Origin: a virus | Taxonomy: Duplodnaviria > Caudoviricetes | Length of the DNA stretch: 60,003 nucleotides | IMG/VR virus record: IMGVR_UViG_3300037408_000429 | Span: 1-60,003 of that record | Direction: 5' to 3' (one strand) | Shown here: positions 3,304 through 38,100 of the stretch, one piece after another | How the letters are laid out: each line of letters opens with the position of its first letter | Position numbering within the stretch: position 1 is the first letter of the stretch | The notes under the pieces: model-generated | The model's input: the letters and a program-made list of their open reading frames with translations, nothing else | The model's database searches: none | Told to the model about the DNA's origin: nothing | Position numbers and translations under genes: made by a program

Positions 3304-3522
3304 ATGATAGATAACTGCATCGCGCATTGGTTCAAAACAACCAGAGTCCCCGGCGGATGCACGGTCAAGCGCATGTTTTTGCGCTTCCGGCATCAACACC
3401 TAGGTGAGCCCGTATCTGAGGCCAAAATCGAACGGATCATGAAGGATCTTGAGGCCCGCGGCGAGGCCGAGCGCTACGGCGCCTATTGGTGGCCGATCAA
3501 GCTAACCGGCGCTGCCGCGTGA
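3304..3522 (+). CDS. Hypothetical protein
   Basis: 72 aa ORF ending inside the first partial attC-like site. Confidence 0.5.
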   Translation: MIDNCIAHWFKTTRVPGGCTVKRMFLRFRHQHLGEPVSEAKIERIMKDLEARGEAERYGAYWWPIKLTGAAA

Positions 3523-3580
3523 AAGGAGAAACATGAAAAACGAGCAGGCCCTTGGGTCCGAGTGCAGCGCCGGGTTAGGC
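3498..3580 (-). mobile_element. Partial attC-like site #0 (left core box lost)
   Basis: CAAGCTAACCGG...GGTCCGAGTGCAGCGCCGGGTTAGGC; 29 bp identical to the right arm of site #1. Confidence 0.7.
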
Positions 3581-3604
3581 GGTGCCGAATGATGAGGAGA
3601 GAGT

Positions 3605-3793
3605 ATGAAAGTGATGATTGATGACGTTGAGTACATACCGGCAGAGCCCGCGCTCGACCTGTTTGGAGACGGGGTGAAACACGCCTGCAAGATGCTAGTG
3701 AGATACATGGAACGCGAGAATGTGGACCTGTTGGACATGGGAGCCGTTGAACTAACGGCGATTGTTAGAGCAGAAATGAAACGTGACGCCTAA
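3605..3793 (+). CDS. Cassette-borne hypothetical protein
   Basis: GAGGAG RBS; stop TAA lies in GCCTAAC of site #1. Confidence 0.7.
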   Translation: MKVMIDDVEYIPAEPALDLFGDGVKHACKMLVRYMERENVDLLDMGAVELTAIVRAEMKRDA

Positions 3794-3916
3794 CGGCTCA
3801 AGCTCACCGGCCCAGCCGCCAGCGAATAGATAAAAGGAGATGAGATGAACGAACCTGTAAGCAAAACTGATGAGTTGCCAGTCACGGCTGGGTCCGAGTG
3901 CAGCGCCGGGTTAGGC
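3788..3916 (-). mobile_element. attC-like site #1 (129 bp)
   Basis: GCCTAAC...GCTCACCGGCCCAGCCG / CGGCTGGG-T-CCG-A-GTG-C-AGC...GTTAGGC imperfect palindrome. Confidence 0.85.
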
Positions 3917-4093
3917 GCGTGCTGCTTTGTGGATGGGAAATTGACCGACGATCCATACCCCACAGCCGAACAATGCACCTGTGGCGGGAATCTCGAATTT
4001 GAGTATGGGTTTTGCCGACACGGGCTCGGGGTTTTCGAACGGTGCGTGGATTGTGGCACGGTCTTTAACTTTCACAAGGACACGGGCGGATGA
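3845..4093 (+). CDS. Cassette-borne Zn-ribbon-like protein starting inside attC #1
   Basis: AAGGAG RBS and ATG in the hairpin loop; CTCG and CVDCG motifs. Confidence 0.65.
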   Translation: MNEPVSKTDELPVTAGSECSAGLGACCFVDGKLTDDPYPTAEQCTCGGNLEFEYGFCRHGLGVFERCVDCGTVFNFHKDTGG

Positions 4094-4094
4094 C

Positions 4095-4115
4095 GCCTAA
4101 CGACTGAGTTGATTC
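4095..4115 (-). mobile_element. Lone core site / possible attI-like end of first sub-array
   Basis: GCCTAAC right after an ORF stop with no matching right arm; minus strand GAATCAACTCAGTCGTTAGGC. Confidence 0.45.
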
Positions 4116-4133
4116 TGTCCAGAAAGGTGAGCC

Positions 4134-4307
4134 ATGTCTTACAATCCAAAATGGTGGCGCATCTGGAAACGTGCCGCCGTGAGCAAAAACTCCCGCACCA
4201 CGAAAGCATCAGAACGTCGCCTTCGCTGGCAGTGGCGGCACGCCGCGAAGCGCGGGCGCTGGATAGCTGACGTGATATACGGCGGAATCCGTCATCCCAG
4301 GCACTGA
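4134..4307 (+). CDS. Small basic Trp/Arg-rich protein (57 aa, not in ORF track)
   Basis: AAAGGTGA RBS; MSYNPKWWRIWKRAAV...HPRH*. Confidence 0.55.
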   Translation: MSYNPKWWRIWKRAAVSKNSRTTKASERRLRWQWRHAAKRGRWIADVIYGGIRHPRH

Positions 4308-4323
4308 TGTCCAGGAGCAAGCC

Positions 4324-4605
4324 ATGAGCCTCGTGCCTATTCCACCACCTGGAGATATAGAGATTGAAATTAACGCTCTCCGAGCCCGCGTCGCAGAACG
4401 GGAGGCATTAATGAAATGTAAAAGGCACATAACAGTGAATGGCAGGTGCCCCGAGTGCCTGGAAGCCCGTGTAGTGGAACTGCTGGAAACGTTAGACCGC
4501 TACCGCAATGCACTGGAAGAACTCTACGGGGCGTCCATTGCCATGAACGAAGTTAATCTTCGCGGGTTCATTCGTGAAACCGTGAAAAACAGCATTGACA
4601 CCTAA
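4324..4605 (+). CDS. Hypothetical coiled-coil protein
   Basis: AGGAG RBS; stop TAA in ACCTAAC of site #2. Confidence 0.7.
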   Translation: MSLVPIPPPGDIEIEINALRARVAEREALMKCKRHITVNGRCPECLEARVVELLETLDRYRNALEELYGASIAMNEVNLRGFIRETVKNSIDT

Positions 4606-4695
4606 CGAAAGAGCTTAACTGGCGCTGGGGTTCGGCGCCTTGGAGGAACCGACCGGACGCAGAGCCCAGCGTCCGGGTAGAACGAGAGGTTAAGC
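4600..4695 (-). mobile_element. attC-like site #2 (96 bp)
   Basis: ACCTAAC...TGGCGCTGGG / CCCAGCG-T-CCGG...GTTAAGC. Confidence 0.8.
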
Positions 4696-4697
4696 GC

Positions 4698-4850
4698 ATG
4701 TGGAAGGTGTCTTGGCTTTGGACATTCTGGGCCATCGGTATTGTTTGGGATGCCCCGCACTACTGGAGGCATTGGGGGAAGTTCATCGGCCTCCATTTGG
4801 GGCCATTATGGATCGCGTATCACTCGGAACGAGACTATTTCGACACCTAA
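4698..4850 (+). CDS. Cassette-borne Trp-rich 50-aa protein (not in ORF track)
   Basis: MWKVSWLWTFWAIGIVWDAPHYWRHWGKFIGLHLGPLWIAYHSERDYFDT*; fills the space between two attC-like sites exactly, stop in ACCTAAC. Confidence 0.65.
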   Translation: MWKVSWLWTFWAIGIVWDAPHYWRHWGKFIGLHLGPLWIAYHSERDYFDT

Positions 4851-4905
4851 CGATTGGCATAACCGGCACGTGGAACACGTGTCCGTGTTCAAGGAGTGGT
4901 TAGAC
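4845..4905 (-). mobile_element. attC-like site #3 (61 bp)
   Basis: ACCTAAC...AACCGGCACGTG-GAA-CACGTG-T-CCG-T-GTT...GTTAGAC. Confidence 0.8.
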
Positions 4906-4921
4906 CGATTGGGAGAAATCT

Positions 4922-5380
4922 ATGGGACTTACTCTTGCGCCAACGACCTATGAAGAAGCCTGTCATTTCGTTGGTTTGCATCACCGGCACCATACCCCGC
5001 CGCAGGGCTGGAAATTTGGCATTGCTGCCTGTCTTGACGGAAAGGTCGTCGGAGTAGTGATGGTTGGCCGCCCCGTTGCCCGCCATGCCGATGACGGCTG
5101 GACGCTGGAGGTTACTCGATGCTGCACCGATGGGACCCAAAACGCATGTTCGACGCTTTACGCAGCTGCTTGGCGAGCTGCGAGGGCACTTGGATACCAC
5201 AGGCTTATCACGTTCACCCTGCCACAAGAAGGAGGCGCAAGCCTTCGTGCCTCGGGTTGGCGGGAACTTTACCGAACGAAGGGCGGGTCTTGGGACCGCG
5301 AAGACCGGCCCAGGGTAGACAAACATCCGACCCAGCCAAAAACACTTTGGGAAATTACGGATCATAAGGAATCGGCCTAA
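4922..5380 (+). CDS. XF1762-family protein (GNAT/Mom-like fold), cassette-borne
   Basis: HHRHH..P.G.KF, GRPVAR..DDG.TLEVTR.CTDGT.NACS.LY, E.GASLRASGW motifs; stop in GCCTAAC. Confidence 0.75.
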   Translation: MGLTLAPTTYEEACHFVGLHHRHHTPPQGWKFGIAACLDGKVVGVVMVGRPVARHADDGWTLEVTRCCTDGTQNACSTLYAAAWRAARALGYHRLITFTLPQEGGASLRASGWRELYRTKGGSWDREDRPRVDKHPTQPKTLWEITDHKESA

Positions 5381-5471
5381 CGTATGGAGTTAACCGGCGC
5401 TTGGGCTGCCGGACCTAGAAACTTGCCGGACGCCACAAGCCCAAGCGTCCGGGTTGAACGCCTGGTTAGGC
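5375..5471 (-). mobile_element. attC-like site #4 (97 bp)
   Basis: GCCTAAC...GTTAACCGGCGCTTGGGCT / AGCCCAAGCG-T-CCGGGTT-G-AAC...GTTAGGC. Confidence 0.85.
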
Positions 5472-5485
5472 GTGTGGAGAACAAA

Positions 5486-5629
5486 ATGGATTTTGATCGA
5501 TTTGAACGGAACCACAACCGCGCGATGCGCTTCGGTTTCTTGGCAGTGATCGTGAACGCTGCACTTGGTCTTGGACTTTTGGGAACAATCATCTGGGTTG
5601 CCGCGCATTTCTTGAAGAAGATTTGGTGA
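5486..5629 (+). CDS. Cassette-borne small membrane protein (47 aa)
   Basis: GGAG RBS, MDFDRFERN..., one hydrophobic helix. Confidence 0.7.
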   Translation: MDFDRFERNHNRAMRFGFLAVIVNAALGLGLLGTIIWVAAHFLKKIW

Positions 5630-5630
5630 A

Positions 5631-5717
5631 GCCTAACGCCCGGAGATAACCGGCGCGGGACGGACGAATGGATGAGCTGGCGGTCAAATCCGCGTCCGGT
5701 TCATCGACTGGTTAGGC
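5631..5717 (-). mobile_element. attC-like site #5 (87 bp)
   Basis: GCCTAAC...GATAACCGGCGCGG / CCGCG-T-CCGGTT-C-ATC...GTTAGGC. Confidence 0.85.
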
Positions 5718-5762
5718 CGCACGGGACGAGATGTTAAGAAATCCTTTACAACTGGAGGAACG

Positions 5763-6002
5763 ATGGGAGCGAAGATTAGCGATGTTCTAAGGAAAGAAGG
5801 GCATCCTGGTTATGCCATTGATGTAGCCGCTCTTGAGAATTTGGTGGTGAAACTACGGAATGACCTTGAAGCCATGACCGCCCGTGCCGCCATCAACGGC
5901 AAGATTGCGATGCGCTATCAAGACGCCCTGGAATACGTTAGGGACTACAGCAATGACCCCGGTGTTGTTCAACGTGCCAAGGATGAACTGGGTGCGGCCT
6001 AA
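5763..6002 (+). CDS. Cassette-borne hypothetical protein
   Basis: GGAGG RBS; stop in GCCTAAC. Confidence 0.7.
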   Translation: MGAKISDVLRKEGHPGYAIDVAALENLVVKLRNDLEAMTARAAINGKIAMRYQDALEYVRDYSNDPGVVQRAKDELGAA

Positions 6003-6120
6003 CGCCCCAAGCTAACCGGGGCAACAGCCAGCACCAGCTTGCGGGGAGATTGGAAGGACGAATGCATGAAGGAGGAATCCTGTAAGTGGCTGTTGGCTCC
6101 GGTTGAGCGTGAGGTTAGGC
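5997..6120 (-). mobile_element. attC-like site #6 (124 bp)
   Basis: GCCTAAC...GCTAACCGGGGCAACAGCCA / TGGCTGTTGGC-T-CCGGTT-G-AGC...GTTAGGC. Confidence 0.85.
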
Positions 6121-6147
6121 GGGGACGAAAACTTGAGGAGAAGGACC

Positions 6148-6336
6148 ATGGATGAAACCCAAACCATTGAAGTGAGGACATCGGATGACTACTACCGGCT
6201 GAAAATGTTGGTAGCAGAACGGGACAAATACAAGAAAGCATTAGTGAGGATCCAGGATGTGTGTTTTGGATCCAGTTCCCAATCGGAAGTTGAACATTTT
6301 GCCTATAACACGTCGAAGGCTGCATTGGACGCCTAA
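6148..6336 (+). CDS. Cassette-borne hypothetical protein
   Basis: GAGGAG RBS, MDETQT...; stop in GCCTAAC. Confidence 0.7.
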   Translation: MDETQTIEVRTSDDYYRLKMLVAERDKYKKALVRIQDVCFGSSSQSEVEHFAYNTSKAALDA

Positions 6337-6388
6337 CGAACCAAGCTAACCGGCGCCGAAGGCGTCCGGTTGAGCGCGAAGGTTAGGC
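6331..6388 (-). mobile_element. attC-like site #7 (58 bp, minimal 59-be-like)
   Basis: GCCTAAC GAACCAA GCT AACCGG CGCC GAA GGCG T CCGGTT G AGC GCGAAG GTTAGGC. Confidence 0.9.
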
Positions 6389-6400
6389 GGGCCAGCACAA

Positions 6401-6751
6401 ATGAAAGGAAATTCGATGACGATTGACGAACTGAAAGCACTGGAACGGAAGGCAACTCCTGGACCATGGGACAATCCAGAATGGGATGCCGTAGAGCGTT
6501 TCTATGACGTTTGCGCGGGAATTGGTAGTGAACAGCATCAAGTATTTGTCACTCAAGATATTTGCAGCAAGAATGCAGGAGAAAACGCCAGGTTTATCGT
6601 GTCTATCCGCAATCTTGTGCCCGAGTTCCTGGCGCTGTGGGAAGCCTGCAACGAACCTGCGCCCAGAGCGGATAGAGGCGCTGAATGGATGGAACGGATC
6701 GTCCATGCTCGGAATGACCTGAATTTTAAGGCAGCAAACATGGACGCCTAA
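6401..6751 (+). CDS. Cassette-borne Ead/Ea22-like phage protein
   Basis: ELKALERKATPGPW...NARFI...RN motif; stop in GCCTAAC. Confidence 0.65.
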   Translation: MKGNSMTIDELKALERKATPGPWDNPEWDAVERFYDVCAGIGSEQHQVFVTQDICSKNAGENARFIVSIRNLVPEFLALWEACNEPAPRADRGAEWMERIVHARNDLNFKAANMDA

Positions 6752-6772
6752 CTTTGAATTAGGCGAACTGGA
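6746..6772 (-). mobile_element. attI-like site at the array end
   Basis: Minus strand CAGTTC-GCCTAAT-TCAAA-GTTAGGC: L box, 5-nt spacer, GTTRRRY; resembles the class 1 attI core CAGTCG-CCCTAAA-ACAAA-GTT. Confidence 0.65.
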
Positions 6773-6874
6773 CGCGCTCCTAAATTAGAGCAAACACATA
6801 CTGCGTCTCAACACAAACCCAACAAAATCAACACGGAACCGCCGTAAAAACAGGTAAATGAGACCGGATGGAAT

Positions 6875-7075
6875 ATGAGCAAAATAAGCAACGCCAGAGC
6901 GGCGAAGGTGCTGGACAAGCGCCTGGAATTCCTCGAAGAATACATCCGCAGCTATGAGTCTGAAACCGGGAACGCCTGCGGGTTTGCCCGAGAGGAATTC
7001 AGGGCACTGACCCAGGCCACGGTGAGCTTGGGGCACCCCACGGAACGCACCGTTCCCAAATTGGAGAGACCATGA
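6875..7075 (+). CDS. Hypothetical protein
   Basis: ORF coupled to next. Confidence 0.6.
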   Translation: MSKISNARAAKVLDKRLEFLEEYIRSYESETGNACGFAREEFRALTQATVSLGHPTERTVPKLERP

Positions 7076-7945: not shown

Positions 7946-8445
7946 GGATCTTCACAAGCATGGGCGAGATGCAGGTCCAGCTTCAACGTCTGCACGATCT
8001 GACCAGTAGGCCATGCTGGGGCGCAGATGGAACACCTTTCCCGGAACACTTGCCCATGGACAAGATCGTGGAGCGGTGCGCGATCAATCTGGAATCACAA
8101 TACGAAAATGCCGGTGAGAACCTTGTTCGACGATTAGACGACATGGCGACCACGATTTCCACCGGGCTTATGAAGATGGTCCACGCCATGCCTGGGACAT
8201 CAAGCACGGACAATAACACGAGAGCATTCTACGTATTCTTTGGTGCCTTCTGCTTCGCCGAACTGCCTACCCAAGAAGAGGCCGACCAGTGGATAGAGGA
8301 ACTATTAGATACCATCAAACAGTTCGCCATGGCCCAGGTCCACGAATCCTTTTCTGCCGCCTTAGACAATCGCCCCGCCAACTACATCGACCCCATGACC
8401 ATGACTATCGGAGGAATCTATGAGGATTCTGAAACTACAGGCTGA
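7942..8445 (+). CDS. Hypothetical protein
   Basis: GAGGAGG RBS, ATGA overlap. Confidence 0.7.
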   Translation: MRIFTSMGEMQVQLQRLHDLTSRPCWGADGTPFPEHLPMDKIVERCAINLESQYENAGENLVRRLDDMATTISTGLMKMVHAMPGTSSTDNNTRAFYVFFGAFCFAELPTQEEADQWIEELLDTIKQFAMAQVHESFSAALDNRPANYIDPMTMTIGGIYEDSETTG

Positions 8446-9784
8446 CAACTTCAAACGACTGAAGGCCGTTGACATCACCCCGAAGGGGGCCATTGTCCCG
8501 ATCACCGGCAAGAACGCGAACGGGAAGACCAGTGTCCTGGATGCGATCTGGGCGGCCCTGGGTGGGGCATCTCACATCCAGTCCGAGCCTATCCGGAAGG
8601 GCCATAACAAGGCCAAGATTCGCCTGGACCTGGGTGAGATCGTCGTCACACGGTCCTTCACCAAGGGCGGGACAACCCTGGCGGTCGAGAACAGCGAGGG
8701 TCTGCCCTACAAGAGCCCCCAGAAGATGCTCGATGATCTAGTGGGGGCACTGAGCTTCGACCCTCTGGAATTCACCCGGATGAAGCCGCGGGACCAGTAC
8801 GACACCCTGCGGGCCCTGGCCAAGGTGGAGATCGACATCGACAAACTGGATGCCCAGAACCGGGCGGACTACCAGCGTCGAACCGACATCAACAGGGATG
8901 CCAAGCTGCTTCGAGCCCAGGCCTTCGGGATCCCCACCGTGGAGGATCCCGGTCCCGCCGAGGACAGCGTGGAAGTGTCCGATGCGCTGCGGGCCCTTCG
9001 TGAGGCCAAGGACGAGGCCCGGGCCCAGAATGACAATCGCGCCGAACTGGAATGCACCATCGAGGCCAAGCGGGCCATCTTCACCCAGAAGCGGCAAGAG
9101 CTGGTCGAACTGAAGGAGTCCATCTCTGCGCTTGAGGACACCCTGTCTTCCATCCCGGTGACCGCAGACACCATGGCGCTCGACAGCCGGATCCTAGAAT
9201 TGGAGACCACCCTTGCCCAGGCCAGCGCCCGAGCAGAGGCCAGGAATGCCCACCTTTTGACGATCCAACGCAAGAAGGACCTGGAGACCGCGGCCGAAAC
9301 CAAGGAAAAGGAATCCGAAGACCTTACTGCGGCCATGGAAGCGCGAGAGAAGGCCAAGCAGGACGCCATCGCCAGGGCCGACATGCCCATTCCTGGTCTG
9401 TCGTTCGGGGAAGGCATGGTCCTATTCAATGGCGTGCCCTTCGATCAGGCATCCAGCGCAGAACGACTCAGGGTTTCCACGTCCATCGCCATGGCGGCCA
9501 ACCCAAAGCTGCGGGTGATTCGCATTGAGGATGGGTCCCTGCTGGACAGCGACTCGATGGATCTGCTCACCCAGCTCGCCACCGAACACGACTTCCAGGT
9601 GTGGATTGAGGTTGTGGACGGTTCTGGCAAAGTCGGCGTCTTCATCGAGGATGGGGAGGTCAAAGCCGACAACCAGGACGCGGCAGAGAAGGACGCCCCG
9701 CCCGAGACCGAACGGACGTTGAACGAAACAGAACTGCCGTCAACGAACGTTGAACGGACGTTGAACGATCTCGACATTCCCTGA
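8420..9784 (+). CDS. SMC/RecF-like AAA ATPase with coiled coil
   Basis: NFKRLK, Walker A GKNANGKTS, long coiled coil, ASSAE signature-like and IEDGSLLD Walker B-like. Confidence 0.85.
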   Translation: MRILKLQADNFKRLKAVDITPKGAIVPITGKNANGKTSVLDAIWAALGGASHIQSEPIRKGHNKAKIRLDLGEIVVTRSFTKGGTTLAVENSEGLPYKSPQKMLDDLVGALSFDPLEFTRMKPRDQYDTLRALAKVEIDIDKLDAQNRADYQRRTDINRDAKLLRAQAFGIPTVEDPGPAEDSVEVSDALRALREAKDEARAQNDNRAELECTIEAKRAIFTQKRQELVELKESISALEDTLSSIPVTADTMALDSRILELETTLAQASARAEARNAHLLTIQRKKDLETAAETKEKESEDLTAAMEAREKAKQDAIARADMPIPGLSFGEGMVLFNGVPFDQASSAERLRVSTSIAMAANPKLRVIRIEDGSLLDSDSMDLLTQLATEHDFQVWIEVVDGSGKVGVFIEDGEVKADNQDAAEKDAPPETERTLNETELPSTNVERTLNDLDIP

Positions 9785-26106: not shown

Positions 26107-29100
26107 CTACTCCTGTCCGCCTTCTTCCTTCTCGTCCGCGAGATGCCTGCGAACGGTCTTGGAAGCCGTGTTTAGTTTGGAGTACCATGCTATGGCGTCA
26201 TCAACGAGTTCTCGATCATCCTTGTTTAGAGAGTTGAGAAACTGTCTACGCCATTTCAACGGCACAGATCCCAGTGGATGTGCGGCCTTGACCGATTGAC
26301 GAATGGACGAAGGCTTGCCGCCCAGTCTGTAATACTCTTCGAGCCAGTGTTTTGATTTTTCTTCGTCACCCCATTGTGCTGCTCGCTTGTGATAGTAGAG
26401 AGCATTGCCCTTCTCCGTTGAATTTCCGCTGTATTCGAATTCTCTGTGCTTGGAATTCTTTAGCCACGTTACCGCCAGATCCCTTGTCAGATAGTAGGAC
26501 GCTTCCCCGGGGTCCGTTGAATAGATCACGAGCGCATCCATGAGAGATTCCGCAGTGCCGGCCTTTCTGGCGGGTTTGTCGGTGACCTTGTTCCAAAGCT
26601 TGTCCAGGGGAGCTACGTTTCTGGCCAGGTAGGCGACTCTGTCTCGAATAGGTTGCCCTCCAGGCTGTAAGCTGGCTCCTTTTTTCCATATAGAAGGATA
26701 GGCAGATCTTCCAAGCGTGATCTCAAAGATAGTCTTGCTTACCGGTTCCCACCCTTGCAGGATACGCTCTACAGGGGCTTTGGCCGCATTGGCAGCTATG
26801 TCCTTGACGGTTGTTTGACCCTTGTTTAGATCCTTCATTTGAGAAGTGAAGTCGCTCAAGTTGAACCAGTCCAGGGCGTCCACCAGTGCGCCGTCCATGC
26901 GGATGTAGCGAATGGATCCGTCAGGACGACGCCCCAGAACCAGGAAGTTCTTCACTCTGGTTGTCCGGCGTAGCAATTCTGTTTCCTTTGGATACCGCTT
27001 GTTGTTCCACATCCACATGAGCGCCAGAAGCAGGTTGATCTTCAAGGCGAACAAGGCATACCTGGTTCCGATCCTGAGACCCAGAGAAGCCGCTGTTCTT
27101 CCTATGCGAGCCGACCTGCTTCCGTCCTCGTAGGCCGTGTTCTTGAAAAGGCGCATGTAGCGGGGCGCGTTGATTTCTGTCCAACTATGGAACGGACGAA
27201 GGTGCCGGCGAATCCACATGCCAGCCAAACTCACGTTCCCATAGTCTCCAATGAGCTCTCTTGATAATTTGGCCGCTTTGTCATCCCGTGTCTTCAGGGC
27301 ATCAATCTCATTGCGCTTGGATGCCGCATACATCGTCTTGCCTTTGGCGAGTTCATTCTGGAAGAACCGATAGGCTGCAAGGCGCAGAATGTTTTCTCGC
27401 CATGACGTAAATGCCTTTAGCCCTCCCCATACCTTCTGGATAGCGTTCCCGTTGGGGCGGTCGCTGGTCAGAAGCCTGAATGCTCCTTCCTTGTCGATGT
27501 CGGGAATTTCGGTAATCGTTAGCCCGGATTCTACGACACCGACTTTGACCGCATGTTGCATTTCAGCCTGCATGCCTTCTGGGGCGTCGTGTGTAACCTG
27601 GTAGCTCCATAGGTCGCTGGCTGCCTTCATGAAGTAGCTAAGTATCCTGGGATCATAGGCCAGTGCGATGTCAAGATCTCCGCTTAGGTTGTTCATGTTG
27701 TAGCGCAGGACCCGCATTGGACTGATTAGCTGCCACTGCTTCCAGGTGCTTTGGGCACCCACCCAGAAGCGTTCTACCGCGTTGCGATCCTGGCTCTTGA
27801 AGTTGTTGAGTTGAGCAGCCAAATTGCTAGGAATGACCCATTCTGTTTTCTTTGAGCCCAGGGCCAGAAGGGTCCGAATGTCTTCCTTCTCCAGCTGCTT
27901 ATTCCCGGACATGACTTTGTCCAGCACACTTTCCTCGACGGTCATAGCAGGGAAGAAGTGGCTCCCTTTCTCTGGCTGCCAGATGGTGTAGTCTTCTGGA
28001 ACCATGTCTTTCCAGGTGGTGAACTGATCCCCAAGGATTTCCCTGATCTCGGACGCGCTGTAATCATCCGGATTCATGCCCCTGTCGATCATGGCCTGTT
28101 CGTTCACATCCTTCGCTATTTGCTTCAACTGGGGCTTGATGTTGGACGATTGGTCCAATCGGTCCAGGGTTTCCTTTTTGATTAGGATAGCCATGGCGTC
28201 GGAAAGCCACTCGAACTCGGCCTGTTTGTAGTCCGTGTTGAAGTCGTGGGCCCCGCCCTTGCGCCCGATCTGGAATCCCTTCTTGTGCGCGTGGAGGTCT
28301 GATCCAACGGCCCCGGGAAAGCTTTCTCTGTCTCTCAGGTAGTCCATGACCTGGCGGTGGTAGTAACTCTCCACGTTCTCCAGTGTCTCACTTGGTAACA
28401 GTCCATTCATCACCAGGGATTCAACCACCGACCGGGACTGATCGTTCCTGATTTTCAAGGCATCTGCTATGGCCTTGTTGGCTGGGTCATTCAGGATTTT
28501 CTCAAACTTGTCCAGGTCTTGACGGGCATGGTCTACGCTCTTATATCCGAATGGCAGTTCGCCCGTTCCATCGTCTATCCCTTCATCGACGTTACGAATG
28601 ATATCCCGAGTGATTATGACCCGGTTCATCAAGTCCTGCTGTGCTGGAGACATCTTCCTCACTACGTTGGCTACCATGTCATGGGCCACCGTCTTGGCGT
28701 AGTTTGCTCCGGCCTCATACTGGCGCAGGTAATCCTGAACGAGCGCCATCTGTGCGCTGTCATTGGGATTTATATACTCGAAGTGCCGCAAGAATGCCTC
28801 CTTTACTCCGCGCAGGCCTTCTCCAACCCTCTTCCATGTTGATTCGGACACGACTCCCTTGTTGGCCTGGTATCTTTTCTCTACTTCTGCAAAGTCAGAT
28901 GCAACAATCACTGCCCCATTGTTTTGGCGCTTACCAAACAGGTCATACAAGAACTTTGACAGAGGGCTCGTAAAGCCATAGGCCATCTCTGCTTCTTGCT
29001 CCTGGTCTCGCTTGGAATCAAGATAGGCCGCAATCGCTTCCTGATAGGCTTCCCCGTGGCGTTCGTACCATTGTGGAGACAGCATGTCATCGAACCAGCG

Positions 29101-32100
29101 ATTGAACTCTTCTTTGGTGTCTCCTGTAAATCTCTTTTCATTTGTGAGACCTTCTGCCGCCATATCCGTGTACAGCATGTCTTCTAGAATCTTCAGCAGG
29201 TTCAATTCTTTCTCAGAGTCCCCCTCTGCCTTGGCGTCATCCGCCTTGGACAACGGCCCTGCGTACTGCTCAAGATCGTATCCGGCGAGTTCCAGACGCC
29301 TGAGCCGGAACTGGATGGTCTTCCTGACATCGGACGACTGGCCCTCATCAATAGCCTTCTTGATTTCTTCCAGCTGCTTTTGCGTCTCTTGAAGCTTGGC
29401 TTCGCCGTGATACTTGGCTTCAACCATTGCCTGGTGCTTGGCCAGGAGTTTTTTGCCCTCTTCCAACTGCTCGGAGGCCCATCCCTGGATCTGGGGGATT
29501 TTCTTCACGCCATTCTCAAGGGACATCTTGAGACCGGCTAGGGTTCTAGCATCGCCTGATGCCACCTGGACGCCATCAAGCGAGATAGACCAGGACTCGC
29601 CGAGTCCTTTCTGTTCTCCGCGTCGATCTGTTATCTGGAACCCATACCCTCCGGGCAGTTTGAGCAACCCGGTGTTCAGCAATTCTACGACATCTCCCTT
29701 TTCGCTCTTCTCTTTGAGTGTCAGTTTCTCTTGGACAGTCTTGAGGATCTTGGGGATTGCCTCCTCCATAGCCTTGATTTCGACCGAATCCAGGACCTTC
29801 TTTCGTTTCTCTCGATAGGCAATGGTCCCCCACTTGTAGGGATCGCGTATCAACAAATCGGCCGCGTCCCTTATGGCCCATCGCTGCGCCGCGAAGAATG
29901 AGTCTTTCTCGGATTGCAGCATGTTGACCTGATTCTGGAGTGATATTTTCTTGGCCACCCGCTGGTCGCCAGTGAAGGCGGCCATCATCTCCTCATAGGT
30001 CATTGTGATGTCGCCAGGATCATCGGCCTCGTTGGCGATTTCTGCCCCCAGATCCATCACATCATCAGCAAATCGCTTCTTGTTGTCCAACATCTGGGCG
30101 AAGAATGCGTCTGCGCTTCCCTCTGTCGCGTAGTTGTAGATGTAGATCGGATCAAACAGGTTCCCAGATCTCTCGATGCGCCCATTTCGCTGTTCCTGGT
30201 TGGCCGGCGTCGTGGAGAGCTCCAGGTGGTGGGCTGCTATCAGGCGCTCCTGGATGTTCACACCGACGCCAAGATTCATGGTTCCACCCATAATGACCCG
30301 GACCTCTCCCGCATTCACCTTGGCAAAGATGGCATTCCGCTTCTTCTCGTTGTCAGGAAGGCGGTCAACAATCTCGTCTGCCGGAATGCCGCGCTCAACG
30401 AGCATCCGCTTGATTTCGGCCAGCATGTTGAACCGTGCGGCCTCTGGCATCTTGAAGCATCTTCCGGGCCCGTAGGCGGCGGGGCTCATAAAATGCTCGC
30501 AGAAGACTACCTGGGTCCCCTTCTCTCCCTGGGATTCCTTGTAGTGCTTCATAATGTTGTCGCACAGATCCACAAGCTTCCCTTCCTTGGGCGCCGGCAG
30601 ATATGGGTCCAGCAGGCGGGGGTCCAGCGCCGCCTGGGCGGATCGGGTGTAGGCCGTGATGGGGATATGCCTTGTCTCGACCTTGACCTTGCCGGCCCTG
30701 TCCCATGCCCCAAGAACCGAACGAATGTAGGACACGATCTGCTGGCTGGTTTCATCAGGCTTCACGACACGGAGGATGGGTCCTCCGGAGGCCAAGGATG
30801 GCAGTTTGGTCCTCTTGATCTGCTTGGCCGTGACACGGTGCATCACTTGGCCCAGCATGGAGCGCAGTTCAGGGATGTTAGAGAACCGACGAAGGCGCGT
30901 CACCATCTTGAAGACGCCCGTAGCATCCAGTTCCGGCTTGCTGGATATTTCCCCGAAGGTCTTCACGAAGGCATCAAACTCCGATATTCCAAGGGATTCC
31001 AGAATGTCGGGGCGCAGATAGCGCAGGTTCGTCCAGATCTCAGCCATCGTGTTCGTGATCGGGGTTCCAGTCATGCAGATGAGGCGGCCGTTCCTCTCGT
31101 GGATGGCCTTGGTCTTCAGATAGAAACTCATGGCCCGCTTGGAGGATTGCGAGTCGATACCCTTCAGGCTGGTAAACTGGGTCCAGAAATCCAGCCGCTT
31201 GAAAGTATGGCTCTCGTCAACTATTAGGGCGTCTGCCTGTAGGTCATCCCAGGTCAGAACTCGGTCTGTCTTGCGCTCCAAGAGTTCGTCCAGGGTGGTG
31301 CCGCGGGCATGTTTGGACTTTTCCGCCTGCTTGGCGCGTTTCCGAGCCTGCTTCTCGTCCACCTCCTTGGGCGCCCTGCCTTCCTCGACTGGTGCTGCTT
31401 GAGCCTGGAGTTGGTTCAACCACTCCAGGCGACCGCGAAGTGCCTGGGCGAATAGGTCTCGACTGCCTCTGGAAAGGTCCAGTTTGAGGCCGCGGACCAC
31501 TTCCTCTACCTTGGCCTTTTCGGCTCGGACGAAGGCTTCGGTGCGAATAGGATCGTCAGGGATGGAAGTTAGATCCTCGTGGGTAAGAATTGCCATGTCG
31601 TAGTCCATGGTCGCCAGACGATGTAAAAACGTCTTTCTTGCCTTGGCGCCTCCGGTGGAGGGCCGCACCATGATGCGACTGTTGGGATAAAGCTGCCGGA
31701 CCTGGGCGGCGAACTGCTGGGCCACAGACCGGGTGGTGGAGACGATGACCCGGTTCGCTTTCCCTAGTCGGCGAAGTTCCATGGCGATGGCCCCGCCCGT
31801 AATGGTCTTGCCGGCGCCCACAACATGGGCCAGGAGTGTGTTCTGGATCAGGCCAGAAAAGACACCTTCAATCTGGAACTTCTCCATAGAGAAGGGTTTG
31901 CCGTTGAAAATCGTCGCCTGCCCCGGGAAGCTGGTCACCGGCATGGTAGGCATCTTGGGGTAAACCAGAACATTGAATCTATCGTTGTAGATTCTTTCGA
32001 TTTCTACAGTGTGTTCGTTGTCTTCCTCCCTTAGCCACTCGCTAAAGGCGTGGCGCAATTCCAGCACCTTTTCCCTGGCCATGGATGTCAGAAGCTTGTT

Positions 32101-35100
32101 TTCCTTGTATTGCCCCTGCCCGACAGAATAGCTGACCTTGATTTCTTCCCAGGTAAGTGCCGATTCTAAAATGTTTATAGGACTGGCTTCACCAAGTTGA
32201 TTCGCCATGGACACGTTCCACTTGGATGACTTGGTAGTGTCCAGGCTCTTGACATACTTATCGCTGATCCTGATGGTTCCTGTGATTTCCTCTCTGCTCA
32301 TAGGCACGTCCAGGCCCATGATCTCTCGGGCAAAATCCTGGAATGTCCTAAGCGGTACCCAATCCGCTCCAAACTTGACGGTGATCTGGGAGATGGGCTT
32401 GGGCTTGGGACGGACTTCCTTCAGTTTGTCTACGTTGTGCTGGAAGAAGGGGTCCTTCTGGGCCGCGGCTTCCGCGGTGTCGATCTTCTCTCGAATGTTC
32501 CCAGACAGATACATCCATGCTGGTTCCAACTTATGGGTTGTTGGATCAACAAAGGCAATATCTTCGGAAAGCATCTTGTTCTTGGCGTCCTCGGACGATA
32601 TCCCCAACAGGCTTCCGATGTATTCCGGGTCGATTCGGAACTTTTCCATGATGGATAACGTGGCGGCCTCGTAGATGTCGGCGGCCTTGGTGATTGCCGG
32701 ACGGATGCGCCCTACGCTTCTGGTGAGGATGTCCACTGGTTTGTAAGTCTTGACCTTTTTAGTGGCGCCTTTTTCTTTGACGAAAGTTTCGCTCACGTCT
32801 TCCAGGCTGGCTACCTCAAAGTAGTCTGGATCATCAACAATATGAGGGTTGACCAGTCCGTTGTTGATCGGCTTGTCCACGCCATTCCGGCGGGTGAACC
32901 GCTTGTAGAGCTCCATGGTCCTGGACCGCAGGGCTTCGCGATCTTCAGTTGGGATGTCTTGGAACTCGGCTTCACGGAGGCGCTTGGCAGCCTCTTTCAT
33001 CTCCAGGTAGACCTTGGCGCTCTCGTTGAAATCCTTGGCCCGTTCCGGGCTCAGTGCCTTGGGGGTAGGAGCCTCTTCGCCTTCTAGGACCTGGCTCCTT
33101 ACCGAGACCCATTCTGCCGGTGTGTAGCGTGTCCCCTCGTAGAACACAACCGATTGGCCGTTCTCGTCCAGATAGATAGAACCGTCCAGGCGCTCGTTGC
33201 TATCCAGTGTCCCAACCTTCCGTTTCTCCATGAGATTGGTGGGTACACCATCCTGGGCCCAGCCTTGTGGCAGGTTGTCGATGGCTCTTTGGAGGGCCTT
33301 CTCGAACTCCCCTTGTGTTCCATCCCAGCGGATCGTCATCCCGGATTGGACGTTGTTCATGGTGTTGATGGCGAACTTCCCAAGAATCTGTTCCGGATTT
33401 TTGGCGAAGTACTCGTTCATGTCGTCCGTCTGCTGGTTCCCGTAGCGATCTTCTCCAAGTGCTACTTCAACAGTCCCCCGGAAAGCATTGGACGGGAATG
33501 CCGTCGAATCCTTACGCCGGAAGATGAGGAGATCAGTAGGGACTTCTGTGCCGGCATTCTTTACGAAGGCATTGGACGGGAGTCGGATCGCGCCTACCAG
33601 GTCAGCTATCTTTCCAATGACATCTCTGTGCTTGGGGTTCACGCTGTCCATGGTCCCCAGCGAAGTGATCGCCACCATCATCCCGCCAGGACGAAGCTGC
33701 TGTAGGCCCTTGATGAAGAACCAGTTATGAAGAGAATGCCCATCCTTCCGAATCTCATGGGAGAACGGAACATTGGTAACAATCAGGTCCAGGCTGTTGT
33801 CTTTGATGGGTGCATTCTCGTAGTCCCCTTCAAAGACATCAACTTCAGGGTAGATGGCCTGGGCTATCTTCGCCGTGACGGGGTCCAGCTCTGCGCCCGC
33901 CACGCTCACGTCACCACGGATGTCCCGCGGCATCATGCCGATGAAGTTACCCACTCCCATGCTGGGCTCCAGGACATTCCCACCCTTGAATCCGAAGGCC
34001 TGGATCATGCCCCAGATGGACTTGACCAGGGGCATGGAAGTATAGTGGGCGTTGAGCGTGGAGAACCGGGCGGCGTCTATTTGTTCCGACGTGAGTTCAG
34101 CCAGGATCTCTTCCGTCAGGGCCCGCCAATTCTTGTTCCAGGACTTGAGGTAATCCGGCAGTTCTACCTGGTTCTTTTCGTACGCCCGGACAGACTTCAG
34201 AAGGCCCTCGTCCACGGCATCCTTGAGGGCGCCCCAGCCAATCCACCTTGCCAAGACGGCCTTCTCCTCTGGTGTAGCCTTGTCCGGCCGACCCTCCTCC
34301 TCCAGCTGTTTAAGCAGGCGGATGATGTCCAGATGGGTCCTGGCGGCCTTGACACGCTGGGCCTCGCTGCCCAGGTTCAACTCGCTCAGGTAGGTATCGA
34401 CTCCGGAGCCATCAATCTCGAAGGAACCGGTCAGGGTTTCTACCCGTCCACGTCCTCCCCGATCCTCACGCACCCTAATATCTGCTCGTTGACCCGGTAC
34501 GCCTCCTGTTCCTCCGGGTCGTACGGAAGTATTCCGTCCATTGCCATCTCCTCCGCTTGTGCTTCCGACGCCCCTCGCTTGAGTGCTAGGTTCTTCCTGT
34601 TTTGGAGCCGGGACTGCTTCTTGTCCACCAAGCTTTGGAACAGGTGTGGGTTTTGTAGAATCTGACGCTTTTCCTCCTGGTCCTTCAGTTCCAAGTCCTG
34701 AAGCACTAGGTCTCTGGCTACGCTCGACGGTATCATGGTCTACCTCTTTTCCTTCCAGTGCCTTTGTTACAAACGCATTGGCATCGGCTTCGGTCTTGAA
34801 TTGGAATCCGGGTATTGCACCGAACCCCTTATAGGAAGAATAAGCCCCTCCCATCCTATGTGCCAGTGTTTTGAGGGCTTGGAATCTTGCGTCGTCTACC
34901 CTCTGGTTTAATCGAGCCACCCAGGTATCGCGCCTTTCCTTGGCGTGGTAGCCCTTGACTGTCTCGATCTCTGCCGGTCCCGCGGGCTTGGCACGTTCCT
35001 CCATGGCCTGGATTGCCGGGTTCTTGTGGGCAGGCTGGGGCGGAGAAGGCTTCTCGGCTTCCGGCCTGGGAGCAGTGGCCTCGGGAGCCTTCGGGGTCTC

Positions 35101-38100
35101 TCGGGGCATGCCGGAGGCCTTGGTCTTCATTTGCTCCAAAAGCGCCTTGGTGCCACTGATGGTCCCAGGAAGTTTGGACCTTGTGTGCTTCTCAAACACC
35201 TTCCTGGAATTCCGATTAGCAGGATCCAGTGTGTCGTTGTAGTTGAAGTTGTTGATAGCGTCCTGAAGATGATCCACGTATTTCTGGGTCATCTTTGTAC
35301 CGGTCAGGCGCTCAAGATCCATTCGAATCAGTTCGCTCTGCTGACGCTTGGCGATGTCTTCATTGGCCTTCGGCTGCTCGCCAACATTGTCAGACGACTT
35401 CTCCAGGAAACTCTTGACGTAGTCCCGGGCCTGTTCTTCCGTGGCGAATCCCTTGCCCTCGGGTAGAACTTCCCCGCTCTCCATGTCCTTGAAGGTGACA
35501 GTGAAGAAGTCTTTGCCTTTCCGCTGGCCCTTCGCCAGACGGACGTTCAGGCCGGAGCCAGAATCCCACGTCTCAAGAACCTGGGTTTCCCCGGGCGTGG
35601 CTACTTCTTCTTGGGAATCAGGCTTGGGCGCCTCTACAGGCGCGGCTTGCTCTGTGACTCTTCCACGATCTGCTGGAAGCTCTTTTTGAATTCCTCGCTG
35701 TCGAGAAATTTCCGAAAGCCGTCGTTCGTAGTCTGTGTAGAGTTCGACGGCGTAATCTTCTGCTCCTGTTGCGGCTGCAACGAGGGCGTCAAACTGGTCT
35801 TCGGAAAGATTTTTTTCACCGTGTAACCTCTCTACAGATTCAATATGCTTCTTCATGGCCTGCTTGGCAAGTTCTCGCTTACTTTTCTGTCCGATTTCCT
35901 TGTCAAGCCATTTGATCCCATCTTCAAGGGCGACCTGCTCCAAGCCTTCGTCCATGTTGATTACCACATGGGCAGGTATACCTTCGTTTTGTAGCGTCTT
36001 GAGTGTCTCCCTCGCCAGAATCAGATTCTCCGCCTGGTGCATCGGACTTACAGGACGACCTTCTTTTGTGAATCTGCCCGCATTCCGATCTACCAGTGTG
36101 TCAAGCGGAGCCAGAACCATCGTATAGGTTGGGGTTTTCCCACCAGACTGGATCCGGCTCATCACATTTTTGATCTCTGTGGGATCGAGATTCAGCCCAT
36201 CAAAGACATATCCAGCCCCGTTGTTTTTCAGGATGCTCCTGGATACCGAGGTTTTCCCTGAACCCTGTGGACCACCCACAACGGCAATTATATTGGGTTT
36301 GCCCTCGGGCATGGGCGCCTTGATGGCCTTATCTTCCAGCCTTGCCACAATGGACGATGCTTCTACAGCAGGGGCATGAAGCCACCCAATTACCGGGTCT
36401 TGTTGCACCCCACCAAACAACTTCGCTGCGTGGTCTGCACCAAGGAGATACCCCCCCTCTGTATCCTCTAAAGCTTGGTAGCGCTGTTCCATCTCCCCTG
36501 GATGCGCCACTGCATGTTTCGCCTCTCGCTGGATCCACTCGTTTATAGATTCGTTCGGCATCCGGGCCAAGATTGGAGAAGCCGGGATCTTAGGGGTGGC
36601 ATCTGTACCCAGAACCAATTCATTCTTCGGAGGGACAACAGCATCCTTGTTGGGGACGGGAGGGGCTTCGACGGGCTTGACCTCTGTGGCCTGGTCCGTC
36701 ATTTTGCCGCGCACACGGCGCCCATCATTCAGGGCGATCTGGACCACGCCTGGCAGCGGGAATGCCTGGATCTGGCCCTCTACTGTTTGACCCTTGTAGA
36801 CAGTCCTTACCCTCTGTCCGATGGTGACGTTCGAAGGCACCGCCGGTACATGTGAGGATGCAGCCACCGCTGGAGGAACTTCTACTACCGGCGTCTGTTC
36901 AACAGGAGCAACTACCGGGATTTTTTGGATTTCTTGGGCTTGGCTTGGTCCCAAGACTTGCCCGCCGAGGACAGGGCCGCCGCCACTATCTGGCGTTGGG
37001 CCGCCTTGGGGTTCGGGGGTCGGCTGTTGCCAAAGGTCCCCTTCTGTTTGTATGACTCCAGGCCCTCCTGGATGTTGGAGGAGATTGCTTCCTGGGACTT
37101 GCCCCTGTTCCACGGCATTGGGAACCTCCTTTTGTGCTTGTAGTGCGAATTTCTCCGCGGCAACTTCAAGTATTTTGTTCTGGTTGGATCTGTTCGCCCT
37201 TCTTGTGTCCCTGGCCCCCAGGTGCCGAGCGGCTCCACCCATCACAATGCCAGTGAGACCGCCGATTACACCCTCGTCCCACTGTTTGAGATACTCGTTC
37301 CTCATGTTCTCAAAAGTGAAAGGCTTCCCGGATTTGGATAATTCCGAGATAACGGCCTGGCCCTGCTCCTCGATCAATCCTTCCGTGACAAAATCCTTGG
37401 CTGCTTCCAGTGTGATCTTGGCGCCTTTCTCGGACATTCGCCGGACCAAGCTCTTGGCGATCTCTTCTCTCAATACTTCCTTGGCGCCTTCACGGGCAGC
37501 AATCCGACCCTCACTCTTCATTAGGCCTCGGATAACATCTCCCGTGGGGCCAGTGGTGTTGGTCACGCCCAGTAGAAGGATGTTGCCAAGAAATGTCTTG
37601 TCACCCGCTGTCGAAGCTATCTTGTGGGCTTGTTCGAGCGTGTAGCCCTGGCGAAGCAATTCTGCCTTCTTTTCGCCATACGAATTGCCAGCCTCGATCA
37701 ACGCCTCACTGGTGCTTGCCGCCCCTGTTCCAAGAAAAAACGACAAGGCCTTCATGCCGGCCTCGACACCCTCTGGCCCTCCGGCATTGGCCACACGGAG
37801 CAGTGTTGGAGACTTGCTTATCGCGGATCCAATGGGCCGCAGAAGCTTCGATCCCATGGTGAATCTTCCCACCACGGATGCGGCCCCGCTTCCTGTTGCC
37901 AGATACGGGATGGAAGACATCATACCTGGACCAGCTTGAGCTCCGACACGATCCCACCATGGTAGCTTTTCCCCTGGTTTCAAACCGCTTTCCATTTGCT
38001 CCAAAACCATAGCGTTCGAATGCAACCCGGCTAGACTGGCTTCCAGGTCTGCCGCCCTCTCTGATAGCCCCGGGGCATTGCCTTGCAGGAGCCAATCAAC

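Follow-up and report, generated by a model that had tools for sequence, protein, structure and literature searches.

A cassette array on a phage genome

The stretch of DNA analyzed here, which we call the window, is a whole IMG/VR virus record of 60,003 bases with a completeness estimate of 84%. Its phage genes include those for a large terminase, a portal/adaptor, an internal virion protein, a DnaB-like helicase, and a primase/helicase. The left end (1–900) is a long non-coding segment with C-rich and A-rich runs and no notable open reading frames (ORFs), and is probably a regulatory or terminal region of the phage genome. A 4,266-aa ORF (26107–38907, minus strand) matches a DarB-like antirestriction protein (phrog_10089, 1074 bits) and has methyltransferase and helicase parts; the idea that it is an N4 virion RNA polymerase, and the phage N4-like with hairpin promoters, was dropped on this PHROGs assignment. 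Neither a tyrosine recombinase (PF00589; zero matches) nor an intI gene (tblastn with the IntI of the host integrons described below) was found in the 60-kb window; the genome is an estimated 84% complete, and the missing part could hold an intI.

The left part of the window carries an array of integron-type attC sites. We built a covariance model, R1, from 15 aligned attC sites taken only from three host loci (L187, L198, and L194), including both the R and the L pairs, and searched the window with filters off. R1 finds eight attC sites, all on the plus strand between 3481 and 6388 (E values from 1.9e-18 to 7e-5; Table 1), and the next-best match in the window has an E value of 0.48. The model is strand-selective: at 6331–6388 the plus strand scores 50.1 bits versus 10.7 bits for the minus strand. 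These intergenic elements have the layout R′ (GCCTAAC), 7 nt, L′, stem plus variable loop, L″, 5–6 nt, R″ (GTTAGGC), with one extra G and one extra T in the 3′ arm, so that the R′/R″ and L′/L″ pairs, central spacer, extrahelical bases on one strand, and variable loop of attC sites are all present; the real aadA1 attC has this layout on its bottom strand. Motif counts follow the array, with 10 of 12 plus-strand occurrences of RYYTAAC lying between 3788 and 6746, and nine of 12 GTTARRY ahead of position 9000. A near-identical attC to A6 is present in another viral locus (L074, 7202–7298).

Table 1. Features of the cassette array and of the site at its end (window coordinates)
Feature	Position	Strand	Description
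attC A0, leftmost	3481–3580	+	R1 24.4 bits, E 3.7e-5; degenerate R′ (GCCTATT), longer 5′ spacer
Cassette genes	3605–6751	+ (attC bottom strand)	3605–3793, 3845–4093, 4134–4307, 4324–4605, 4698–4850, 4922–5380 (Mom-like), 5486–5629, 5763–6002, 6148–6336, 6416–6751
attC A1	3788–3916	+	R1 62.7 bits; long loop holds ribosome-binding site and start of gene 3845–4093
Orphan R′ box GCCTAAC	4095–4101	+	No attC hairpin behind; no R1 match
attC A2	4600–4695	+	R1 32.9 bits
attC A3, short	4845–4905	+	R1 23.6 bits, E 7e-5; GAA triloop
attC A4	5375–5471	+	R1 66 bits, E 1.9e-18
attC A5	5631–5717	+	R1 53.1 bits
attC A6	5997–6120	+	R1 52.9 bits
attC A7, nearest the site	6331–6388	+	58 nt, GAA triloop; R1 50.1 bits, E 2.4e-13
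R box of attI-type simple site	6746–6752	+	GCCTAAC; minus strand GTTAGGC
Spacer, 5 nt	6753–6757	+	TTTGA; minus strand TCAAA
L box and conserved G	6758–6765	+	ATTAGGC; inverted partner of R box, 6/7 complementary
Possible accessory box	6777–6791	+	CTCCTAAATTAGAGC; weak third CCTAA/TTAG motif
Non-coding leader, site to next backbone gene (6875–7075)	6766–6874	+	Partly alignable with leaders in L028, L059, and L165, e.g. ...AAAACAGGTAAATGAGAC...

The array reads as nine cassettes from 3481 to 6751, with all genes on the plus strand, and in seven of the nine the closing gene stops on the TAA of an R′ box. The orphan R′ box is probably a decayed attC, in which case 4102–4605 is a two-gene cassette. 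Complementarity between a cassette's own R′ and R″ was uninformative as a boundary test, nearly all of the boxes being identical. The Mom-like gene matches a DNA modification protein family (phrog_1384, E 5e-37), and this cassette together with the DarB-like protein points to heavy investment in counter-defence by the phage. The initial annotation had taken the empty form of the locus to be gene 4324–4605 joined directly to the terminal site, which is wrong, as attC sites and cassette genes run left to 3481. At that far end gene 3304–3522 extends into attC A0, and because this leftmost attC has no intact R′ box, the boundary is not the clean attI-derived junction that a simple model predicts.

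In several attC sites the loop supplies both a ribosome-binding site and a start codon (window 3533–3592 and 3845–4093, and also L028, L021, and L074), and such an ORF would be translated through the attC 3′ arm. The peptide ...GSECSAGLG... is common to both window copies, and the 19-aa ORF at 3533–3592 may be a remnant. Homologues of the Mom-like gene (56% identity) and of the attI-proximal gene 6416–6751 (30% identity) lie beside attC sites in other viral contigs (L066 924–1265; L032 99–341).

An attI-type simple site ends the array

The plus strand at 6746–6772 reads GCCTAAC TTTGA ATTAGGC GAACTGGA, and its minus strand, CAGTTC GCCTAAT TCAAA GTTAGGC, is exactly as first described. The segment has inverted L and R boxes, a short spacer, and GTT at the crossover point, which is predicted to lie between A6751 and C6752 (minus strand G|TT), and the R box contains the TAA stop of the last cassette gene, 6416–6751. 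It stands at the array end where the attC bottom strands end, joined to the first cassette at G|TT, and the host-derived attC model gives no match after 6388; with no long hairpin behind the site either, the earlier description of a core box without an attC hairpin stands. The motif YCTAACNNNNNATTAGRC, allowing at most one mismatch, has two matches in the window versus 0.09 expected; none of 100 shuffles reached two, and 6747–6764 is the sole exact match. Contigs from three runs span the joint between cassette, site, and backbone (X1 record 4, X2 record 15, and X4 record 30).

Two features set the terminal site apart from the attC sites. Its L box always begins with A or AA, while attC R″ boxes instead read GGTTAGGC, which makes it a distinct type of site, and the spacer begins with TTT in nine of 10 viral terminal sites (the window counted) and in every host site seen. 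Past the L box, at a distance of 12–34 nt, hosts and several phages carry a clear CGCCTAAT/A copy as a third box, often hairpin-paired with the L box; the corresponding window match is imperfect (CTCCTAAAT at 6777–6785) and absent from the minimum-energy fold.

No intI remnant is found by tblastn in the window leader (E ≤ 1). In three other viral loci (L028, L059, and L165) a non-coding leader of ~120–155 nt begins exactly at the terminal R box; L028 and L059 are 94% identical here, and identity to L165 is 74%, with different cassettes on one side and different genes on the other. The window leader has parts in common with these. Such a leader could be a promoter/leader or an extended attI.

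The attI1 core of In2/Tn21 from plasmid R100 reads CAGTCGCCCTAAAACAAAG|TT, and the window minus strand matches it ungapped at 16 of 21 positions, so that the count previously made by eye is borne out by the R100 record. In the same orientation attI1 reads ...AAC TTTGT TTTAGGGCGACTG, with TTTGT as its spacer, and the window ...AAC TTTGA ATTAGGCGAACTG. The two share their build, with the L box inverted, an A-rich spacer of few bases, and the G|TT crossover in the R box, and they have the same position and polarity relative to the attC bottom strands. The accessory repeats DR1 and DR2 of attI1 are not recognizable in the window, and unlike attI1 the window site has no neighboring intI and no Pc promoter context, is carried by a phage, and has cassette genes that read towards it rather than away. 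With five of 21 core positions differing and the related host IntI only 59% identical to IntI1, this is not a class 1 integron; nor is it a complete integron (intI, attI, and at least one attC), as intI is absent from the window. It is a CALIN that kept its attI.

The same site adjoins integrase genes in Holophagaceae and Geothrix

To look for bacterial counterparts, we scanned GCCTAACTTTNNATTAGGCG against one genome per species (185,579 species). The 17 matches are, by an arithmetic estimate, about the number expected by chance, and the signal lies only in their array context and taxonomic clustering. Nine of them are in Acidobacteriota: four Holophagaceae contigs (from two MAGs), three Geothrix, one 'Acidobacteria bacterium', and one Blastocatellia. 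Seven of the 17 matches lie at the 3′ end of same-strand attC arrays, and all seven belong to the Holophagae class; R1 matches occur upstream of the site and on its strand in L184, L186, L187, L189, L193, L194, and L198, of which L186 and L189 took no part in training the model. Another six of the 17 (L182, L185, L191, L192, L196, and L197) are hairpin-like matches in AT-rich genomes without arrays.

A true integron integrase is encoded in all five genomes tested (TIGR02249, 454–478 bits versus a cut-off of 265). In L187 and L198 the site starts 134 nt ahead of the start codon of intI and is flanked by the attC array on the far side, and L201 and L203 have the variants CCCTAAC TTTGA ATTGGAC and ACCTAAC TTTGA ATTAGAC ~258 nt ahead of intI. 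Host sites thus lie 134 to about 260 nt upstream of intI, between the integrase gene and the first cassette and with window-like polarity towards the attC sites, which is the canonical order of intI, attI, and cassettes. Their consensus is RYCTAAC-TTTNN-ATTRGRC, and the 20 nt of the window site fit RYCTAAC-TTTNN-ATTRGRC-G exactly. Polarity also agrees with what had been predicted from the attC sites, since all eight window attC sites are on the plus strand with the site 3′ of them, as in L187 and L198, and the attC family is the same. The host sites differ in having a clear CGCCTAAT/A box or hairpin next to them, an adjacent intI in the main integron (L187, L198, L201, and L203; none in the 60-kb window), and cassette genes on the attC top strand, the window's being on the bottom strand. 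In keeping with the similar attI sites, the host IntI and R100 IntI1 share 59% identity. On this sequence and context evidence we regard window 6746–6765 as a true homologue of the integron attI, of the Holophagaceae/Geothrix (Acidobacteriota) type and related to attI1; the comparison with a candidate host, proposed at the outset, thus yielded the same simple site.

Further attC arrays of the same Holophagaceae and Geothrix genomes (L184, L193, L194, and L189) end in an attI-type site without a neighboring intI and are followed by ordinary genes, such as those for an ABC transporter ATPase and an amidohydrolase, so that several attI-ended arrays are possible in one genome.

Site-ended arrays recur in unrelated phages

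A pattern for the attC 5′ arm, which excludes the terminal site, matched 63 viral stretches, and R1 gave 97 matches in 64 viral loci, on one strand only in each locus with multiple matches. Eleven viral arrays have three or more attC sites and sufficient sequence downstream, and the terminal site lies within 800 nt of the array end in eight of them (L081, with a variant site, L028, L035, L059, L067, L069, L020, with AATAGGC, and L032), compared with a chance expectation of ~0.002 per array by an arithmetic estimate. The conservation that was asked of the site is therefore seen, in phage contigs that are otherwise unrelated. The site was not seen after the three remaining arrays of the 11 (L060, L074, and L061), nor after three arrays with two attC sites (L065, L076, and L066); L165 has a single attC and the terminal site.

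No homologue of the window terminase (TerL) was found in 10 array-bearing viral records tested, and four of five tested encode another TerL; two have direct terminal repeats. The presence of arrays on phages with unrelated TerL proteins suggests that the platform follows host type rather than phage lineage. A wider pattern, CTAACTTTNNATTAGNCG, proved of little use, as its 102 viral stretches are nearly all chance matches in AT-rich contigs, the real ones being only L028, L032, L035, L059, L069, L083 (part of G003, described below), and L165.

Phage and host cassettes differ in coding strand

We compared coding strands by cutting arrays into crude segments between R′ boxes, giving 46 viral segments (window included) and 24 host segments from five arrays, one of the 24 being a 22-nt artefact. 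The longest forward ORF stops on the R′-box TAA in 28 of the 46 viral segments versus two of the 24 host segments, and the forward ORF is longer than the reverse one in 30/46 and 0/24, respectively. Of 30 host-array ORFs that reach 100 aa, 25 run along the opposite strand, and Pfam supports two of the 10 host cassette ORFs tested (DUF4304 and DUF4747). The host cassettes thus follow the canonical arrangement, and those of phages point at the site, codirectional with the neighboring phage genes.

Footprints of cassette movement

One other viral record, G003 (67.9 kb, estimated to be complete), carries a perfect cassette duplication, with 367/367 nt identical. The repeat starts and ends at GCCTAAC, which is the type of R box present in the window site, and the second copy stops exactly at the GCCTAAC of the G003 terminal site, running straight into TTTCA ATTAGGCG. 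As only 7–8 bases are common at this joint, site-specific exchange at the R box is its simplest cause. L059 and L069 have a cassette in common (96.8% identity over 343 nt), with R′ boxes at its borders and different neighbors in each contig. G003 and G015, from one sample, share a pre-array segment at 99.5% identity and one cassette at 95%, and their other cassettes differ; the orders, X-C′-E-F-site in G003 versus X-P-Q-S-C-D-C-site in G015, are compatible with entry at the site, and are not decisive.

The prediction that variability should be concentrated at the site end is borne out in part, by the single G003 duplication in another phage; for the window phage itself no close relative was found by megablast against phages. 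Its 161-aa flank protein has no match in viral contigs, a 23-nt flank pattern has none in metagenome contigs, and the only relatives of its 454-aa ATPase are at most 49% identical over the full length; R1 finds no attC in 32 loci (523 kb) around these distant ATPase relatives. Four wetland runs contain the region, two of them being its possible source; over the parts that they cover, their contigs, an assembly product that drops rare variants, show no variant joint at the terminal site. Run contigs break at attC sites, and short contigs show window attC sites in other contexts.

Alternative origins of the terminal site

The alternative that survives best, which we still think unlikely, is that the array is a relic, a piece of a host integron or CALIN comprising cassettes and attI that was captured by illegitimate recombination and is now a non-working passenger. 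In its favor are the lack of an intI in the phage, the eroded left end, and the absence of the array from the 32 loci of distant backbone relatives; host chromosomes also contain capturable pieces of this kind, attI-ended arrays without an adjacent intI by housekeeping genes (L184 and L193). However, phage cassette genes lie on the strand opposite to the host's (R′-box stops in 28/46 versus 2/24 segments), so phage arrays do not simply copy those of hosts. At least nine other viral contigs with differing cassettes also keep the site, and in G003 a perfect cassette copy abuts it.

We think it quite improbable that cassettes are moved by a different enzyme, either a phage-encoded or other tyrosine recombinase or a single-strand transposase, with the site as its target. 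G003 does encode two tyrosine recombinases by the site, one with an Arm DNA-binding domain, and ~16% of the window's genome is unseen. The G003 enzymes are not IntI, with TIGR02249 scores of 38 and 59 bits, far under the cut-off of 265. A PF00589 gene is nevertheless present in only one of five array-bearing viral records, and is missing from one with an estimated completeness of 100%, while the sites match those of IntI-encoding host integrons in sequence, structure, and polarity.

It is very improbable that the site is what an internal deletion left of the last attC, with only its R′ and R″ remaining. TTAGGCG is also the usual end of attC sites in this family (GGTTAGGCG), and the R′ and L box can form a 6-bp stem, but independent arrays and hosts conserve features of the site's own, with A or AA rather than GG before TTAGGC and a 5-nt spacer led by TTT, and in hosts it adjoins intI; a random deletion would not recur in this way. 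Least credible is that the inverted repeat arose by chance or forms a small terminator hairpin behind the last gene, for although six of the 17 genome matches look like ordinary hairpins without arrays in AT-rich genomes, and Qi et al. 2023 (PMC9892861) describe, at the edge of a phage CALIN, a predicted terminator whose GTTRRRY boxes are inverted, only 0.09 matches are expected per window, there is no T-run, the L-box region folds weakly, and the site recurs at array ends and adjoins intI in hosts.

A proposed phage cassette platform served by host IntI

The window carries an attI homologue on an integrase-less phage cassette platform that is probably served in trans by host IntI. The best-supported reading of the terminal site, and a probable one, is that it acts as the cassette entry point in the window phage, its function being assigned by homology. 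A phage-borne attI at the array end had been proposed from the window alone, and the idea gains support from the intI-adjacent site of hosts, the shared attC family, recurrence in phages, and the G003 duplication. The computation shows the sequence, homology, and polarity of the site, its recurrence, its host context, and the junction footprints; catalysis by host IntI, present-day activity of the window site, and the identity of the host are inferred, and the cognate enzyme is probably the host IntI that is 59% identical to IntI1. PMC2095811 describes attI sites as recognized only by their cognate integrase, attC sites being shared.

In the mechanism that we propose, the phage infects a host expressing IntI, which would bind the R and L boxes of the phage site in double-stranded form and, on a free cassette circle, the folded attC bottom strand. 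Strand exchange would take place at ...GCCTAA|C (other strand G|TT), and since this lies in the R box of the site, new cassettes would enter beside the site; excision would occur by attC × attC recombination. The orientation of insertion would be fixed by attC polarity, and transcription would come from upstream phage promoters, so only cassettes with a gene on the attC bottom strand would be expressed. Such selective expression would account for a pool of 'reversed' cassettes, including the Mom-like one, that is specific to phages and occurs in unrelated ones. More broadly, phages of Holophagae-type hosts might keep a host-type attI as a dock, use host IntI, and trade a pool of bottom-strand cassettes among unrelated lineages, with the stop codon in the R box so that phage transcription reads the genes, a generalization on which we are evenly divided.

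Integrons are regarded as bacterial devices, and conserved attI sites on phages, at the ends of phage-oriented cassette arrays, would mean that the same enzyme is exploited to build phage gene collections. Integron cassettes store anti-phage defences according to two preprints (10.1101/2024.07.02.601686, 10.1101/2024.07.02.601719), and the platform proposed here, if real, would be the phage-side counterpart of such bacterial integrons. The 20-nt site, the attC sites, and the candidate cognate IntI form a defined, testable substrate; attC and attI type may offer a route to host assignment of uncultivated phages; and the stop codon, and often the start codon, built into attC bear on the origin of cassettes.

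Qi et al. 2023 (PMC9892861) report attC clusters (CALINs) without intI in both virulent and temperate phages, a CALIN of the cryptic Shewanella prophage M16-3 that starts with a host-type attI, inverted GTTRRRY boxes at CALIN boundaries together with the predicted terminator at one phage CALIN, and recombination of phage attC sites by IntI1. Sections 3.1, 3.3, and 3.4 of that study contain neither attI-ended arrays recurring across many unrelated uncultivated phages, nor a reversed coding strand, nor Acidobacteria-type sites. In our literature search, which covered abstracts and main-text sections, no paper turned up that describes attI-ended arrays of reversed cassettes in a range of uncultivated phages, or attI sites of the Holophagae type. 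IntI can also insert cassettes outside attI and attC, at secondary genomic sites termed attG (10.1101/2022.09.11.507474), and insertion there would likewise leave a cassette joined to backbone DNA at GTT; the window site is not an arbitrary GTT of this kind and has the conserved attI type of one integron lineage.

Other loci with related sites

In a Verrucomicrobiae MAG (L183, 3397–4217), an identical simple site, GCCTAACTTTGAATTAGGCG, lies beside broken intI pieces that are 59–80% identical to Holophagaceae IntI, and the locus has no attC of the R1 family. The 14-attC viral array of L074 ends (8174–8600) in an extra gene, possibly for an HNH-type endonuclease, instead of the terminal site; the flank past this gene resembles the window flank (GAACTCACACGCCGCCTAATCTGGAGCAAACAC), and the terminal site of L074 may have been disrupted. 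The record containing L067 and L073 (G005) has two TerL matches separated by 35.3 kb and carries the array twice in identical form; with its 55 kb the contig seems to exceed one unit length of a ~35-kb genome.
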